This document shows positions 37,511 to 49,435 of a stretch of 64,000 nt of DNA, in pieces; position 1 is the first letter of the stretch; every line of letters starts with the position of its first letter. The translations under genes were made by a program, and so were the position numbers. This DNA comes from an uncultured candidatus Porisulfidus sp. (GTDB taxonomy: Bacteria > Pseudomonadota > Gammaproteobacteria > Poriferisulfidales > Poriferisulfidaceae): NCBI GenBank assembly GCA_963668445.1, contig OY764335.1:1022083-1086082 (forward strand). The letters are read 5' to 3'. Under the pieces are notes generated by a model. That model had not been told where the DNA came from, searched no databases, and was given only the letters and a program-made list of their open reading frames with translations.

Positions 37511-38530
37511 CTAACCCGAGCCGCCCGGCTTGCGCAAGCGCCAGCGCAATTCCGGCCGGTGCCCCGGCGGCGGCGCGAAATCCTCCCGCCACCCTACCGC
37601 CGTTGGCACGCCAGCTTGCCAGCGCGCCACTTCCATCACCTGATCCCAGAAAATCACGTAGTCGCCCGGCTGCAACTGCGCTTCCAAAGCCGCCACTGGC
37701 GCCATCAACTCGAACCCCTCGAACTCCGGATTCTTTTCCGCCATCGGGAACTCCTCGAGCGGCCGTGCATGCGCTTCCATGTACACGATGCCCCCCAGCA
37801 GCCCTACCTTGATCGGCATCGACACGATCTGGACCGGCGTCCCAAGCGGCACGCGGTAGATCAATTCGGCAATGTCGGCCGGGCGCAGCCGAATGCAGCC
37901 GTGGGTCACCCGCATGCCGATGCCCTCATTGCGGTTGGTGCCATGGATGAAGTAGCCTTCCATCCCCAGCATCAGGGCATAGCGCCCCAACGGATTGTCC
38001 GGACCCGGCGGCACCACGCGCGGCAATTCCTCACCCATCGCCCGATGCTCCACCCGCACGGATTCCGGCGGATACCAGTTGGGGTGTTCCAGCCGGTCGA
38101 TCACTTCCGTCGCGCCCAGCGGCGTCACCCAGTCGATCCGCCCGGCACTGACAGGATAAGTGCGCACCCGCGTCGCTCCGTCCTCTCCAGCCTCGTAGTA
38201 GTACAAGCGCAATTCGGCAAGATTGAGTACGATCCCTTGGCGCCGCGTGCCCGGTAGAATGTATTGCCTTGGAATGCGAACCTGAACGCTTTCCCCCGGC
38301 ATCCAAGGATGGATGTTCGGGTTGGCCCACAGCATCTCATGAAAGCCGACCTGATGCGCATCAGCCAAATCCGGGACCGTCTCTCCGTAGCGCGTCGTGA
38401 TGCTGTAGGAAGCGCCCACGACGGAATCGCCAGACATCGGCAGTTCCAACAATTCCGCATGCGCCGGCATCAGAGCCAAGACAAGCGCCGCGCCGCCCAC
38501 GCAGTTCCATCCATAATGGTCATGCAGCAT
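37511..38530 (-). CDS. L,D-transpeptidase (ErfK/YcfS/YnhG type, LysM + YkuD)
   Basis: GIVLNLAELRLYYY, PPGPDNPLG, FIHGTN, THGCIRL. Confidence 0.9.
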   Translation of the reverse strand: MLHDHYGWNCVGGAALVLALMPAHAELLELPMSGDSVVGASYSITTRYGETVPDLADAHQVGFHEMLWANPNIHPWMPGESVQVRIPRQYILPGTRRQGIVLNLAELRLYYYEAGEDGATRVRTYPVSAGRIDWVTPLGATEVIDRLEHPNWYPPESVRVEHRAMGEELPRVVPPGPDNPLGRYALMLGMEGYFIHGTNRNEGIGMRVTHGCIRLRPADIAELIYRVPLGTPVQIVSMPIKVGLLGGIVYMEAHARPLEEFPMAEKNPEFEGFELMAPVAALEAQLQPGDYVIFWDQVMEVARWQAGVPTAVGWREDFAPPPGHRPELRWRLRKPGGSG

Positions 38531-38582
38531 AATCAGCCGCCCGGCAATCGCGCCCCAGCTTCAACGGGCACAAGTATATGGG

Positions 38583-39809
38583 ATGCGCCCCCATGCTTGC
38601 CGAATCCTGATTGCCCGCCGCCTTCTCCCTGCCGTGTCGTACGCCGAACTGTTTGAACTGGATCCGCAGCTGGTTCATTTGAATCATGCCGGCATCGCTC
38701 CGTGGCCGCGCTGCACCGTGCAGGCCGTCACCCGATTCGCGTATGAAAACGCCCGCTGGAGCGCACGCCACTACGCTCGCTGGCTGGAGGAGGAACAGGC
38801 CCTGCGCGAACATGCGCGCTGGCTTGTGGATGCCGAATCGAGCGACGAAATCGCCTTGCTCAAAAACACTTCCGAAGGCCTTTCCGCCGTCGCTCTGGGT
38901 CTCGACTGGAAGGCCGGCGACAATCTCGTGCTGGCCCGCGAGGAATTTCCCTCCAACCGCATCCCTTGGGAAGCGGCCGCCGCGCGCTACGACCTGCGCA
39001 TCCGCTGGGTCGATGCCACGACTGCGAACGACCCCGAAGCCGCGCTCCTCGAGCAGGTCGATGCCCGCACCCGTGTTCTGGCCACCAGTTCCGTGCACTA
39101 CGCCACCGGCCTCAAGATGGATCTGCCGCGGCTTGGCGCCGCCTTGGACAGCACGCCGACCCTGTTCTGCGTGGACGCCATCCAAAGCCTAGGGGCGCAT
39201 GCCCTCAGCGTGCGCGACAGCCGCATCGATTTCTTGGCGGCCAGCGCCCATAAATGGATGCTGGGCCCGGAAGGCATCGCTTTGTTCTGGGTGCGGCCGG
39301 AACATTACGAACGCCTGCAGCTGACGCAATACGGCTGGCATGGCATCGCACAGGCCGGACGCTACGAAGAGACGGTCTGGGACCTCGCGACGCGAGCGCA
39401 GCGCTTCGAATGCGGCAGCCCCAACACAATTGGCATGTACGCCTTGCGCGCCAGCCTCGACCTGCTGCACGGCATCGGCCTGTCCGAGATCGAGGAACGC
39501 ATCGCGGACCGCATCGGCCAACTGGAACAGGCCCTGAAGATTCTGGGCTGCCGCATTCTGACGCCTGCCGCGCCAGAGCGCCGGGCCGGCATCCTCACGT
39601 TCGCTCCGCCGCACGGCGCCAGTCCCGATATCTGCAAGCAGCTGAATGCACGAAACGTCCTGTGCGCCGCACGGGGCGGCGGCATACGCTTTTCGCCACA
39701 CTTCTATACGCCAGCACACTCCCTGCAGCAGGCTCTGGAAACGCTGGAAAATATCTTGGACCAAGGAGCAAGACAAAAGACTGGTAAACTGAAGCACCCT
39801 GAAGCCTAA
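38583..39809 (+). CDS. Class-V PLP-dependent enzyme (cysteine desulfurase/C-S lyase fold)
   Basis: HLNHAG, VDAIQSLG, ASAHKWMLGPEG, FECGSPN, IRFSPHFY; true start uncertain. Confidence 0.85.
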   Translation: MRPHACRILIARRLLPAVSYAELFELDPQLVHLNHAGIAPWPRCTVQAVTRFAYENARWSARHYARWLEEEQALREHARWLVDAESSDEIALLKNTSEGLSAVALGLDWKAGDNLVLAREEFPSNRIPWEAAAARYDLRIRWVDATTANDPEAALLEQVDARTRVLATSSVHYATGLKMDLPRLGAALDSTPTLFCVDAIQSLGAHALSVRDSRIDFLAASAHKWMLGPEGIALFWVRPEHYERLQLTQYGWHGIAQAGRYEETVWDLATRAQRFECGSPNTIGMYALRASLDLLHGIGLSEIEERIADRIGQLEQALKILGCRILTPAAPERRAGILTFAPPHGASPDICKQLNARNVLCAARGGGIRFSPHFYTPAHSLQQALETLENILDQGARQKTGKLKHPEA

Positions 39810-39848
39810 ACCGCTTCCATGCCTCCGGAATAATCCATGATCCACTCT

Positions 39849-39900
39849 TATAAATATAGTATTAATATATAATAAATATAGTTTTTTATGATTATAAACT
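39849..39900. promoter_or_regulatory. Extreme AT-rich element with an 11-bp direct repeat
   Basis: ATAAATATAGT at 39850-39860 and 39872-39882 (22-bp period), immediately upstream of the DUF6580 gene. Confidence 0.6.
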
Positions 39901-40427
39901 CATTGCGGAACCCGGCGGCATGGGGAACAGTCGCCATGATCATGCTGGCTGCCGCCACGCGGTTGCTGCCGCATCCGCCCAATTTCACGGCCGTGCTGGC
40001 CGTCGCAATGTTCGCCGGCGCCCTGTACGCCCGCCCTTACAGCGCCCTCCTCGTGCCATGGCTGGCCATGGCTGCCAGCGACCTCGTGCTCGGCTGGCAT
40101 GCAACACTATGGGCCGTCTATCTGGCCGTCGCCTTGAGCGTCGGCTGCGGTCGCTGGATGCTGGAACGCTTCCACACCTCCGGCCTGCTGGTCGCCGGCA
40201 TATCCAGTTCCGCCCTGTTCTTCATCACGACCAACTTCGCGGTCTGGGCGCACGGCGAGTTGTACCCGCCAACCGTGGCCGGACTGCTGGCCTGCTACAT
40301 CGCCGCCATCCCATTCTTCCACCATACCTTGCTATCGACGCTTCTGTATGGCGCCGGGCTGCTGACCGTCGTCCGGTACGCTTCCAACCGCAATTGCCTG
40401 GACGCGCTTTCCACGAGGCATGCCTGA
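39888..40427 (+). CDS. DUF6580-like small membrane protein (putative transporter, S-component size)
   Basis: RLLPHPPNFTAV, SDLVLG, FFITTNFAVW, CYIAAIPFF; 179 aa, about 5-6 TM segments. Confidence 0.75.
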   Translation: MIINSLRNPAAWGTVAMIMLAAATRLLPHPPNFTAVLAVAMFAGALYARPYSALLVPWLAMAASDLVLGWHATLWAVYLAVALSVGCGRWMLERFHTSGLLVAGISSSALFFITTNFAVWAHGELYPPTVAGLLACYIAAIPFFHHTLLSTLLYGAGLLTVVRYASNRNCLDALSTRHA

Positions 40428-41149
40428 TGGCAACGCGGCTCTTCTTCGGACTCTGGCTCCTGCTCGGATTAGGCATGCCCGCCATAGCCGACAAGGCGAC
40501 CCCGCAAATCCTTGATGGACTTTGGCGCGGCACATTCGATATCAATAATCAAGGACGCTACGACTTCACGGCCTTGTACGTCGGCGGGCAAGTCGCCGCC
40601 TACAGCGTGGACTCCAACGTGGTCTACCGCGGCACCGTCATCGGCGACGACAAGACCTACCAGTCGAACATGTCCATGTTCATCCGAGACGGCTCCATGT
40701 TTGCCACGGTGCAACTGGAAGGCACCGTCGGCAATCAAACCCGGTCCATTGTTGCACGCTACCGCACGAGCGCCGACGATACCGGCTCGCTAGGCCTCGT
40801 CTACGACCCCGGCTTCGAACGCCCTGTCGCCCTAAACACGCTGGAAGGACTCTGGGAATTCTCGTACAAGAAAGGCAGCATCAGCATCAATATCAACGCT
40901 ATCGGAGAAATCAAAGGCACAGACAGCGAAGGCTGCAACCACTACGGCACCTTACAACCTGCCCGCCCAGGCATCAATGCCCTCGCCATCCAAGTGGAAC
41001 TGGCGTCATGCGGCACTGCGGACGGCCAATACGCGGGCATGGCTTACATTGCCGACGGGCAGGCCACCGGCGACACGCTGCACTGGAACGTTACGGGCAC
41101 GCATTTCGGCATGTACTACCCGCTGCGGCGGGTCGCGTCAGCGCCCTAG
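40427..41149 (+). CDS. Hypothetical secreted protein, two tandem beta-rich domains
   Basis: TGATG coupling to DUF6580; signal peptide MATRLFFGLWLLLGLGMPAIA; LDGLWRG and LEGLWEF repeats; Cys pair GCN/SCG. Confidence 0.75.
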   Translation: MATRLFFGLWLLLGLGMPAIADKATPQILDGLWRGTFDINNQGRYDFTALYVGGQVAAYSVDSNVVYRGTVIGDDKTYQSNMSMFIRDGSMFATVQLEGTVGNQTRSIVARYRTSADDTGSLGLVYDPGFERPVALNTLEGLWEFSYKKGSISININAIGEIKGTDSEGCNHYGTLQPARPGINALAIQVELASCGTADGQYAGMAYIADGQATGDTLHWNVTGTHFGMYYPLRRVASAP

Positions 41150-41923
41150 CTGCTGCCGGAAGAATTCGTGTGCCTGCCGCACCGCCGCTTGCGCGGCGCG
41201 GGCATTGTGCTCCACACGGTTGTTCAGATAAATGCCCTGTACGCCCGGCGCATCGAAACTGTGATAAGCCCCTTCGTACACCACCAGCTGCACGCGCTCC
41301 GGGCGCACTTGCGTCATGACCTCGCAGCGATGCGCCGGCGTCCACGAATCCAAATCTCCGATCAGGATCAACAAATCGGTATGCGAATTGCGCAGCGTAT
41401 CCAAGCACCATGGCGAGATTGCGATGGCGCCGGCAAACGGCGCCTCTTCGTTCAGTTCGTCGTCCAGCGCCAACAGGACCGTCGTCGCCCCATGCGAAAA
41501 GCCTGTCAGATAAATCTGTTGCGGCTGCACCCATGTCTGCTGCGCCAGCCAGCGCTTCGCGCCATGCGCATCGCGCGCCCGGTGCCAAGTCGGCACCGCG
41601 AACAGGCTGCCGCATATATTGCTGAAGCCGCGCGGCTCGAAACTGTCGACCTGCAGCACGGCCATCCCCCATTCCAGATAATGCCCGACCCATGGCTTCG
41701 AGCGCACCGGCCAGATGCCGTTGCAACCATGCAAATCGACAATGGCCGGATACGGCCCCACGCCTTCGGGCCGGTACAGATACGCCACCAATTCGATGGT
41801 CGCATCGGATTCGTAAACCGGCACGCGGAGCGTCACCGTTTCCGGAGGCGGCAAGGCGACGGCGGCCGCCGCCTGCATGCCAAGCGCGACCGCCAGCAGG
41901 AACGAAGCCTTACGGACACACAT
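41138..41923 (-). CDS. Secreted dienelactone-hydrolase-family alpha/beta hydrolase
   Basis: Signal peptide, DLHGCNG, GFSHGA nucleophile elbow, IGDLDSW, YHSFD. Confidence 0.85.
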   Translation of the reverse strand: MCVRKASFLLAVALGMQAAAAVALPPPETVTLRVPVYESDATIELVAYLYRPEGVGPYPAIVDLHGCNGIWPVRSKPWVGHYLEWGMAVLQVDSFEPRGFSNICGSLFAVPTWHRARDAHGAKRWLAQQTWVQPQQIYLTGFSHGATTVLLALDDELNEEAPFAGAIAISPWCLDTLRNSHTDLLILIGDLDSWTPAHRCEVMTQVRPERVQLVVYEGAYHSFDAPGVQGIYLNNRVEHNARAAQAAVRQAHEFFRQQLGR

Positions 41924-42455
41924 GGCGAGCGAAGCGCCGATGCCAGTGCTGCAGGTCGGCCAGCGAATAGGCGGCATTGGCGGGACTGGGATTCGGCGTC
42001 ACGAAAATCCGCGTCGGCTTCACGACGCGCCGCTGCACGCCCCAGCGGATTTGCTCCGGCGCTTCATCCAGCGCGTATTTCAAAAAACTGCGGTACGCCT
42101 GCTTGCCATGAAACCACGCCCATTGCGGCCGGCAATCCTGCAGCAGCTGCAGCAGCCGCGGCGCATCGCGCCGAAAGTCTGCGGCCCGCAGTTCGTGTCC
42201 TTGGCGACTGGGCCGTTTGGCAACATCCGTAAAGCCGATGCGATCATGCCGCAAAAGCACCCGATGGTACCCCGGCGACGGCTCGCCGGAAGAATCGGCC
42301 AATCCAGAATCCGCAAAGGCCCGCCAGAAGCGATTGCGCGGATTGGCGAAATAGAAGCCCGCCCGCACCGACGGCACGGAGGGATTCAAGCCGACGGACA
42401 GGACGCGCAGATTAGCGGCCACGTAATCCGGTAGCGTCTCAGGTATGTCTTCCAT
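41910..42455 (-). CDS. mug: Mismatch-specific uracil/thymine DNA glycosylase (family 2)
   Basis: VGLNPS, YFANPRNRFW, IGFTDV, FHGKQAY, PNPSPAN. Confidence 0.88.
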   Translation of the reverse strand: MEDIPETLPDYVAANLRVLSVGLNPSVPSVRAGFYFANPRNRFWRAFADSGLADSSGEPSPGYHRVLLRHDRIGFTDVAKRPSRQGHELRAADFRRDAPRLLQLLQDCRPQWAWFHGKQAYRSFLKYALDEAPEQIRWGVQRRVVKPTRIFVTPNPSPANAAYSLADLQHWHRRFARHVCP

Positions 42456-43545
42456 GGCGTTGCGCTTCGTCCGGCTCAAACAAATCCGGTTGCGCGGAGG
42501 ACGCATGGAAGAGGTCGGTGCGCAGCGGCGCACGTTGCCGGTTCAATCCATGGCGTCGGCAGGCCAGCACAAAACGCTGCCGCAACAGTTGCGCGAATTC
42601 GCCCTGCCCGCTCAAGCGCCGCCCGAATTCCGGATCGTAGTCGGCGCCGCCATGCAGGCTGCGTACCGTGCGCATGATGCGTTCGGCACGATCGGGCACA
42701 TGCTGCTCCAGCCATTCGTGAAACAGCCGCTTGAGTTCATGCGGCAAACGCAGCACCACATAGCCGGCGCAACCCGCCCCCCGCTCTGCCACAGCCTCCA
42801 GAATCGATTCCAGTTCCACATCGTTCAAGAACGGAATCACCGGCGCCACCAAGACGCCGACGGGAATACCCGCCTGCGCCAGCGTCTGCACCAGCGCCAA
42901 GCGTGCGTGCGGAGCCCCGGCCCGAGGCTCGAGAATGCGGCTCAGCTTGGCATCCAGCGTGGTGACCGACACGACGACCTCCGCCAAGCCGTCTTGCGCC
43001 AGTTCCTCAAGGATGTCCCTGTCCCGCTCCAATAGTGGCGATTTCGTTATGGCCGAAACCGGGTGGCGGAACTGGCGCATGACATCGAGGATGGAGCGCG
43101 TAATCTTGAGTTGCCGCTCGATGGGCTGATATGCATCCGTGTTGTACCCCAATCCAATGGTGCGGCACGCATACCTCGGGGCGGCAAGTTCTGCGGCCAA
43201 AACCTCCGCCGCATTGACTTTACAGAAGATGCGCGTCTCGAAATCCAACCCGGGCGACAAGCCCAGATAGGCATGGTTGGGCCGCGCAAAGCAGTACACG
43301 CAACCATGTTCGCAGCCCCGGTAGGGATTGATGGAACGATCCAGTGCGATATCCGGAGATCGGTTGTAGCTGATCAAACTCTTCGCAGGCGCAGCAAAGT
43401 AGCGCGTCTCGCACGGCTCGTCTTCCCATTCGCGCCCGTCGTGCTGCAGTTCGATTTCCTCCGATTCGTAGCGCCCGGGCGGATTGCTGATGGCGCCGCG
43501 CCCTTTACGCGGCTTCCATTGGACGGGGTTCTCGGTAACATCCAT
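42439..43545 (-). CDS. PA0069/Rv2578c-family radical SAM protein (SplB-like)
   Basis: KGRGAISN, SINPYRGCEHGCVYCFARP, NTDAYQPIE, VAPVIPFLND. Confidence 0.88.
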   Translation of the reverse strand: MDVTENPVQWKPRKGRGAISNPPGRYESEEIELQHDGREWEDEPCETRYFAAPAKSLISYNRSPDIALDRSINPYRGCEHGCVYCFARPNHAYLGLSPGLDFETRIFCKVNAAEVLAAELAAPRYACRTIGLGYNTDAYQPIERQLKITRSILDVMRQFRHPVSAITKSPLLERDRDILEELAQDGLAEVVVSVTTLDAKLSRILEPRAGAPHARLALVQTLAQAGIPVGVLVAPVIPFLNDVELESILEAVAERGAGCAGYVVLRLPHELKRLFHEWLEQHVPDRAERIMRTVRSLHGGADYDPEFGRRLSGQGEFAQLLRQRFVLACRRHGLNRQRAPLRTDLFHASSAQPDLFEPDEAQRHGRHT

Positions 43546-48917: not shown

Positions 48918-49435
48918 GACGCACGATCGTCCGGAGGACTGAACAGCAGAATCTGCCTCTCCCGTTCGGATTCGGGCAACGCCTGCTCCTCCCGCTCCAG
49001 AAGTTCGCGCCATTCGCGAATCGTGGCCACCTTCTCGAACACCGTGGCGTACAGAATGCACGCGATCTGATCCCGCTCCCGCAATTCGCTCAGCACCCAA
49101 TGGCCGATCATGCGGCTCGGCACCGTGCTTTGCGGATGCGCCTGCGCCCGGTTGGCGACCTGCTGGTACGCCTCGTCCAGAATGGCGGCGCTGTTCGGGC
49201 GGTTCTGCAAGGCCAGCTGCATGCTCCGCTGCAGCTTCCCTTCATCGAAAGCGACGCGCGTGCCGGTGCTCTTGACGACGTCCGGTAATTTCAAGCGCGG
49301 CTGCTCGTAGGTCGTGAAGCGCTGCGCGCAATTCGGATCCAGACACTCGCGCCGCCGGCGCACTCTGCCGCCACTCTCAACAAGGCGGGAATCGAGAACC
49401 TTCGTGTCGGCCGACTTGCAGAATGGGCATTGCAC
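48914..49435 (-). CDS. nrdR: Transcriptional repressor of ribonucleotide reductases
   Basis: CPFC..DTKVLDSR, RRRRECL..C..RFTTYE, ATP-cone. Confidence 0.95.
   Translation of the reverse strand: MQCPFCKSADTKVLDSRLVESGGRVRRRRECLDPNCAQRFTTYEQPRLKLPDVVKSTGTRVAFDEGKLQRSMQLALQNRPNSAAILDEAYQQVANRAQAHPQSTVPSRMIGHWVLSELRERDQIACILYATVFEKVATIREWRELLEREEQALPESERERQILLFSPPDDRAS

Follow-up and report, generated by a model that had tools for sequence, protein, structure and literature searches.

A DUF6580 membrane protein, a probable solitary vitamin B12 carrier, is encoded in one operon with an exported tandem-barrel protein in a candidatus Porisulfidus genome

An operon for a membrane protein and an exported barrel protein

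We analysed a two-gene operon in the genome of an uncultured candidatus Porisulfidus sp. (Gammaproteobacteria, Poriferisulfidaceae), which encodes a membrane protein of the DUF6580 family (ORF A) and an exported protein, designated B. The operon lies in a window of 64,000 nucleotides, positions 1,022,083 to 1,086,082 of contig OY764335.1 (assembly GCA_963668445.1), and all coordinates below refer to this window unless they are given as genome positions. The host genome is a single contig of 1.757 Mb with 63% GC and is 99.5% complete. ORF A (39888..40427, + strand; 179 aa, six transmembrane helices) and ORF B (40427..41149, + strand; 240 aa) overlap by one base, the TGA stop codon of the former sharing its final A with the ATG of the latter (TGATG), and the two translationally coupled genes constitute one operon, which contains no ATPase gene. 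A first-pass annotation of this DNA, made from the sequence alone, had described a membrane protein with several transmembrane segments coupled in this manner to an exported protein, and had noted the lack of an ATPase gene; the coordinates, the overlap and the signal peptide of B all agree with that description. An AT-rich intergenic spacer of 78 bp (39810..39887, + strand), in which the operon promoter is located, separates ORF A from the gene of a class-V aminotransferase on its 5' side. The downstream neighbours, genes for a DLH hydrolase and for UDG, are the same in the window and in 13 congeners. The database gene call places the start of the DUF6580 protein at Met17 (39936; 163 aa), which removes most of the first transmembrane helix, but the ATG at 39888 is favoured as the start codon by homologous sequences and by the alignment to the Pfam model.

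ORF A matched the Pfam family DUF6580 (PF20221) with an E-value of 2.8e-45 and a score of 154.9 bits (cut-off 27) over positions 5-157 of the 162 positions of the model, and showed no other Pfam match, including none to any Pfam family of energy-coupling factor (ECF) transporters. The AlphaFold2 (AF2) model, built with 40 homologues, had a pLDDT of 89.6 and a pTM of 0.85 and consisted of six long helices. When this model was compared with the PDB by Foldseek, the best matches were all ECF S-components, namely FolT (4Z7F) and ThiT (3RLB and 5EDL). The seven best chains, all FolT or ThiT, were matched with probabilities of 0.72-0.99, TM-scores of 0.47-0.60 and E-values of 0.3-1.2, and for the best of them the probabilities were 0.95-0.99 and the TM-scores 0.53-0.60. 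The predicted structure thus supports an S-component-like fold for ORF A, the protein type that the first-pass annotation had proposed. The conserved residues of the family comprise RLxPHPPNF, D65, G69-x-H71, FFxxTNFxVW, W120, Y126 and C136-Y-x-A-A-I-P-F-F; Cys136 in the last helix, together with His29 and His71, is at least 90% conserved. Because the charge distribution puts both ends of the protein in the cytoplasm, these motifs are predicted to lie on the periplasmic face. EcfT (PF02361) is absent from the host genome, whereas the same search detected it in 11 of 14 reference genomes used as a control, and therefore the ORF A protein is solitary, as had also been claimed. A complete ECF transporter (EcfT with EcfA/A') was rejected for the same absence and for the lack of an ATPase gene in the operon. 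Members of the family occur in Bacteroidota, Ignavibacteriota, Planctomycetota, CPR and other groups. A literature search found no paper on DUF6580 and no published link between it and vitamin B12 (B12).

B carries a signal peptide of the SPase-I type at residues 1-21 (40427..40489, + strand), read from the sequence as MATRLFFGLWLLLGLGMPAIA/DK with the cleavage motif AIA/D (the slash marks the cleavage site) and modelled with low pLDDT. No Pfam, NCBIfam or PDB sequence match was obtained for B (families at E≤0.1), apart from one spurious hit. In the AF2 model, which was built with 31 homologues (pLDDT 90.4, pTM 0.85), DSSP assigned two 8-stranded up-and-down barrels, at residues 31-127 (40517..40807, + strand) and 141-235 (40847..41131, + strand), and just two 4-residue helices, both in the linker between the barrels. 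The first barrel opens with the invariant motif G31-L-W33-x-G35-x-F37-D38. GLW occurs at residues 31-33 and again at 141-143, with both Trp residues invariant. The first-pass annotation had seen here two beta-rich repeats each initiated by GxW; a GLW does open each barrel, but no sequence repeat was detectable between the halves (hhalign probability 1.9%), which are instead two similar folds. The cysteine pair that it had pointed out is real: Cys170 (40934-40936, + strand) and Cys195 (41009-41011, + strand) are invariant in the 31 homologues and probably form a disulfide. Foldseek matched the barrels of B to generic barrels only (TbpB lobes, nitrobindin, nitrophorin, GrlR and designed barrels), with single-barrel TM-scores of 0.56-0.72 and E-values from 1e-3 to 1e-1. 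The earlier comparison with lipocalins is supported as regards the two modelled calycin-like 8-stranded barrels, but B matches no lipocalin sequence family, and its model shows no C-terminal helix packed on a barrel. A class III periplasmic binding protein of the BtuF type (Peripla_BP_2), which has two Rossmann-like lobes with a helix between them, was rejected as well, B being all-beta and without a Pfam match. By exhaustive profile search, the B family comprises 1543 clusters at 50% identity with E≤1e-3, and 532 with E≤1e-10; no Pfam model covers the barrel in 20 sampled members.

The AT-rich spacer and its putative promoter

The spacer in front of the operon reaches a GC minimum of 0.28 per 100 bp, and 39826-39913 is the sole island of ≤20% GC per 60 bp within the window, which bears out its earlier description as the most AT-rich stretch. 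Over the whole genome at least 22 such islands exist; they look intergenic, and many of them have TATAAT-like boxes. One AT-rich island is found just upstream of the class Ia nrdAB genes. Given this number, AT-rich spacers appear to be a general habit of this genome, which suggests that AT-rich promoter islands are a genome-wide feature. An Rfam scan of 38000-42500 gave no match that explains the spacer, even at E≤10. No cobalamin riboswitch (RF00174 or RF01689) lies upstream of this operon, and the 78-bp spacer is too short for a riboswitch, in agreement with the earlier remark that there is no room for one.

A perfect TATAAT -10 box is located at 39868..39873 (+ strand). Three metagenome contigs (L126-L128) encode proteins 82-88% identical to those of the window, in the same gene order and with the AT-rich tract kept, and in the alignment of close relatives the block TATATAATAAATA, which contains TATAAT, is invariant in 4/4 and is the only invariant block of the tract. 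The -35 sequence is poor in the window (CTCTTA), and in the relatives it is TTCTCA or TTTTCA, 17 bp upstream of TATAAT. The start codon follows the -10 box by 14 nt, and a Shine-Dalgarno sequence is absent. Judged from these sequences, the element would be a sigma-70 type promoter with a perfect -10 box and a leader of perhaps 7-8 nt. In the 13 congeners, the same two genes stand behind a quite different spacer, in which the repeat described below is missing and which adjoins a divergent tRNA-Ala(GGC) gene. This shared spacer (L005, L132 and others) also carries a TTGACA-N17 promoter for tRNA-Ala(GGC). In the congeners a TAAAAT box precedes the ATG of the DUF6580 gene by about 10 nt, and their mRNAs look even closer to leaderless. 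Because the spacer differs while the downstream neighbours are the same, the spacer of the window lies at a rearrangement breakpoint.

The 11-mer ATAAATATAGT occurs twice at a period of 22 bp, as the first-pass annotation had recorded: copy 1 (39850..39860, + strand) is within the promoter spacer, and copy 2 (39872..39882, + strand) overlaps the 3' end of the -10 box and the putative transcription start region. That annotation placed the operon under this repeat as a regulatory element with some likeness to the NrdR box, and the operon would then be nutrient-regulated at transcription by a dedicated regulator, for example NrdR, Fur or Zur. A non-overlapping repeat of 11 bp in the AT-rich stretch is indeed rarer than composition predicts, being reached by 0.2-1% of composition-preserving shuffles; the copies occupy a position common for repressors, and an nrdR homologue is encoded in the window at about 49019-49435 (- strand; tblastn). 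On the other hand, no other exact copy of ATAAATATAGT exists in the window or in the 1.757-Mb genome and no second copy pair is found genome-wide, where the two single one-mismatch matches equal the number obtained with the reversed-pattern control. The repeat is also missing in the 13 congeners, and its two copies match each other at just 7-8 of 11 positions in the three closest relatives, where TATAAT is kept; copy 1 reads ATGAATATTGT or ATGAATATTTC in the close relatives, and copy 2 reads ATAAATATATT or ATAAATAAAAC. An NrdR operator consists of tandem palindromes of 16 bp, spaced by about three helical turns, and recurs before nrd genes. The sequence here is a direct 11-mer repeat at 22 bp, unlike the palindromic sites of NrdR, Fur and Zur, and its likeness to the NrdR box, as judged against the consensus, amounts to a half-site match in AT-rich DNA without a palindrome. 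Operators of NrdR, Fur and Zur were rejected accordingly for the lack of a palindrome and of recurrence, and no regulon can be assigned to an 11-mer that is unique in the genome. With AT-rich islands common in this genome, an operator function of the repeat is very unlikely, and the exact repeat is most simply explained as a recent local duplication.

A probable link of DUF6580 to vitamin B12

Eighty DUF6580 loci were collected from named genomes of many phyla, their neighbouring genes were clustered, and all of them were scanned with Rfam. At 32 of the 80 loci, a TonB-dependent receptor of about 650 aa, resembling BtuB, is encoded directly upstream on the same strand, sometimes with the gene of a DUF5074 protein between the receptor and DUF6580 genes. 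Riboswitches of the cobalamin clan were found upstream on the same strand at 36/80 (34 of RF00174 and 2 of RF01689), in most cases together with a BtuB-like receptor, and this number is a floor, because several loci are cut off upstream. The aptamer directly precedes the DUF6580 gene in L098, L107, L108 and L112, and in L106, which is additional to the 36, an RF01689 element lies just downstream of DUF6580. Rfam detected no other riboswitch class in the 80 loci. Furthermore, four loci show the gene order NrdR, class II ribonucleotide reductase, DUF4430, DUF6580 and PduO adenosyltransferase. The first-pass annotation had guessed a cobalamin link from the NrdR-box likeness; the link holds, but by way of these riboswitches and not of the box. 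In a tree of 90 DUF6580 proteins, the genus of the window forms one clade, which is sister (SH-aLRT 98) to the gammaproteobacterial proteins of L047, L048 and L103, all three encoded in operons with the order riboswitch, receptor and DUF6580. DUF6580 is also carried by Pelagibacterales (SAR11-type) contigs L083 and L064, and in the former a 109-bit cobalamin riboswitch (L083:1473-1651) is upstream of a 751-aa ORF and DUF6580.

The host genome contains a single RF00174 cobalamin riboswitch (genome 1212021-1212209), about 150 kb from the operon and in front of the gene of a BtuB-like receptor of 638 aa (riboswitch and gene, L125:1021-3119 = genome 1212021-1214118). In this GC-rich DNA the BtuB-like gene is masked by a longer spurious ORF in another frame, and it is followed on its 3' side by a 201-aa SCO1/SenC-like ORF. 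The genome also encodes a PduO-type adenosyltransferase and QueG, the cobalamin-dependent epoxyqueuosine reductase. No FecCD/BtuC permease, no CobS and no B12-binding domain (PF02310) was found in it. Since PF02310 is missing, MetH is absent, as it is from 40 of 41 relatives, and it was discarded as the B12 consumer; class II ribonucleotide reductase was discarded likewise, as the enzyme of this genome is of class Ia (nrdAB, genome 611589-615747). DUF6580, the riboswitch and QueG are present in all 15 congeners, 14 of which lack a true FecCD. Because the genome needs B12, cannot complete its synthesis for lack of CobS, possesses a riboswitch-controlled BtuB and lacks a known inner-membrane permease, DUF6580 is likely its inner-membrane route for B12. 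The DUF6580 protein is a probable importer of corrinoids (vitamin B12) across the inner membrane.

Two distributions among the relatives were set aside. In family f3 (G017-G040), a true FecCD (10/12 genomes) and DUF6580 (only G026 and G038) are mutually exclusive. The FecCD locus inspected there, that of G020, adjoins msrPQ and the gene of an 805-aa TonB receptor and looks iron-type, not B12-type, and for this reason the exclusivity was not counted as evidence. The profile of QueG against that of DUF6580 is uninformative, because QueG is nearly universal in the relatives.

Possible role of the barrel protein and comparison with known systems

Of 17 related loci, 13 retain the one-base overlap, even though the proteins are by now no more than 55-65% identical. 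A natural DUF6580::B fusion of 418 aa is intact in four assemblies, on contigs of up to 1.7 Mb and in copies that differ by one or two residues; it represents one population (L129:102-1358), and the DLH gene comes after it, as it does after B in the window. In the fusion, the signal peptide of B becomes a seventh hydrophobic segment, and the topology still fits a periplasmic B. No further DUF6580::B fusion was found among distant B homologues. In other DUF6580 operons, the carrier is accompanied by small extracytoplasmic proteins of the DUF4430 and DUF5074 types.

From these observations the following route can be drawn. The riboswitch-controlled BtuB-like receptor would bring B12 across the outer membrane, and the DUF6580 carrier, like BtuM, would need no ATPase to move B12 or other corrinoids through the inner membrane. 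The TGATG overlap would cause B to be made in a fixed ratio with the carrier, and B, as a periplasmic protein with a disulfide, may pass a ligand on to the carrier or make the carrier more stable. Transcription of the operon would start at an AT-rich promoter of the sigma-70 type, with a very short leader and without a B12 sensor of its own, so that control by B12 would be exerted only at the outer-membrane receptor gene, and the imported B12 would serve QueG. As a whole, this account of one operon with a solitary DUF6580 B12 carrier, a co-translated B that may assist it and a plain promoter is the explanation that we favour, with modest confidence. Its parts are not equally firm. That B cooperates with DUF6580 seems somewhat less likely than not, and that it binds corrinoids specifically is doubtful. 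The strongest version, in which DUF6580 and B are a two-part, ATPase-less B12 importer, with B as a new tandem-barrel corrinoid binder that captures the B12 released by BtuB and delivers it to the carrier, and with the fusion as its tethered form, seems unlikely to us.

Several observations weigh against the favoured account, and some of them concern the substrate of the carrier. The DUF6580 gene here neither adjoins btuB nor lies under a riboswitch, and 44 of the 80 family loci are without a riboswitch or other B12 signal. The structural E-values of Foldseek are weak (from 0.3). Membership of the BtuM family by sequence was rejected, as neither the ORF A sequence nor the 40-sequence family profile matched BtuM or any other PDB chain at E≤10 in phmmer and hmmsearch with a PDB copy that should include the BtuM structure 6FFV. 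In the sister family f2, moreover, the DUF6580 genes sit in clusters of sulfur oxidation or sulfur metabolism, and in four f2 genomes DUF6580 is present and QueG absent; from these facts and from the loci without a riboswitch, DUF6580 may lack a single substrate. The f2 clusters (L038-L041 and L043) comprise genes for DsrE-like, Pyr_redox_2, DUF1641, DUF6580, AhpC and molybdopterin oxidoreductase proteins; no cobalamin riboswitch was found anywhere in the genomes of these five loci, and the f2 branch of DUF6580 is elsewhere in the tree. It could be argued from these findings that DUF6580 carries something other than B12 in the genus of the window too, be it a different vitamin, a precursor, a metal complex or the like, and that B12 enters by an unrecognised route. 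The sister position of the genus clade to riboswitch-linked proteins, the lack of any other riboswitch class at the 80 loci, and a genome that needs B12 for QueG and has a riboswitch-controlled receptor but no FecCD-type permease all argue against this, and we regard a substrate other than B12 as rather improbable.

The other points against the favoured account concern B, and they suggest that it may be a passenger, namely an older periplasmic barrel protein of the order with a role of its own, for example in binding hydrophobic or envelope ligands. The DUF6580 gene would then have landed upstream of it in the ancestor of the genus and taken over its promoter region, and the two would be co-translated without cooperation. 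B is present in 37 of 41 related genomes and DUF6580 in 27, ten of the related genomes have B without DUF6580, and the two are adjacent only in this genus. In other families of the order they are more than 100 kb apart, and in the sister family, where such a distance is likewise seen, B keeps its downstream neighbourhood (the rib-nusB-thiL-pgpA block or DLH). No B homologue was found within 4 kb of the 80 other DUF6580 loci, no DUF6580 outside this genus was found near the 16 B loci from a 400-genome sample of Gammaproteobacteria, and no riboswitch was found near the B homologues of other families. The longer distant members of the B family are fused to PKD, Big or Ig-like domains, not to transporters; such additions are common in extracytoplasmic proteins. 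As for the fusion, a slip of one base where the stop and start codons overlap would be enough to create it, and it may be neutral if the signal peptide is still cleaved. What speaks against a passenger is the conservation of the one-base overlap across the genus at 55-65% identity, the persistence of an intact fusion in four assemblies and the pairing of the carrier with DUF4430 and DUF5074 proteins at other loci. As regards the joint uptake system that the first-pass annotation proposed, the two genes are adjacent in this one genus only, although the natural fusion also occurs there. A passenger role of B is thus a serious possibility, to which we give considerable weight, next to the favoured account in which B may be the partner of the carrier.

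About half of the B12-dependent bacteria are without the classical BtuCDF pump (PMC6072759). DUF6580 is a candidate B12 carrier with a wide distribution over many phyla, including SAR11-type and CPR genomes. To our knowledge, B12 import in place of BtuCDF has been demonstrated for BtuM and ECF-CbrT only, and DUF6580 is much more widespread than these. The locus described here adds a riboswitch-free and probably constitutive version of DUF6580, in a small genome in which QueG alone is recognised as a B12 enzyme, as well as a lineage-specific periplasmic candidate partner, which is fused to the carrier in one population. The fusion is a natural construct for asking whether solitary S-component-like carriers use a binding protein. 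The B family, with more than 1500 clusters and no Pfam model, is uncharted. The novelty of this locus lies in the absence of a riboswitch and in a barrel protein that is coupled or fused to the carrier.

Among known systems, the nearest in presumed function is BtuM of Thiobacillus denitrificans (PDB 6FFV), an S-component-like protein that carries B12 on its own in Gram-negative bacteria lacking both an ECF module and BtuCDF (Rempel et al. 2018, PMC6072759). DUF6580 resembles it in being small (about 20 kDa) with six helices, and both families are co-located with btuB. DUF6580 likewise occurs without EcfT in its host genome and is linked to the receptor (32/80) and the riboswitch (36/80), although this linkage is seen at the family level and not at this locus. 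The invariant Cys80 of BtuM, a cobalt ligand, in contrast appears to have no counterpart at that place in DUF6580, whose conserved Cys136, His29 and His71 are at other positions. With FolT (4Z7F) and ThiT (3RLB), DUF6580 shares the predicted six-helix fold, and its conserved residues would face the periplasmic loops where S-components bind their substrate. However, ECF S-components (FolT and ThiT, and CbrT for B12) dock on EcfT and two ATPases, whereas the genome that hosts this DUF6580 protein has no EcfT.

The arrangement of control resembles that of E. coli, in which btuB has a riboswitch and the btuCED genes are not known to be regulated by B12: the B12 sensor is on the outer-membrane receptor gene only, and the gene for the inner-membrane step has a promoter of its own that does not respond to the sensor. 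The difference is that the inner-membrane step here would be a single small protein, not an ABC pump with BtuF. Each half of B, as modelled, is an 8-stranded up-and-down barrel opened by G-x-W, like the calycin barrels (lipocalins, nitrophorins, nitrobindin, TbpB lobes and GrlR), but B differs from these in having two barrels in tandem, no matching sequence family and no C-terminal lipocalin helix. The closest parallels to the gene arrangement are the DUF4430-DUF6580 and receptor-DUF5074-DUF6580 modules, in which the carrier gene is likewise paired in an operon with the gene of a small extracytoplasmic protein. DUF4430 is a transcobalamin-like domain (PMC4350170), and our literature search on DUF5074 and DUF4430 returned nothing relevant beyond this transcobalamin link. 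These modules are controlled by riboswitches and their partners have other folds, whereas B is unrelated to them and stands with DUF6580 in one genus.

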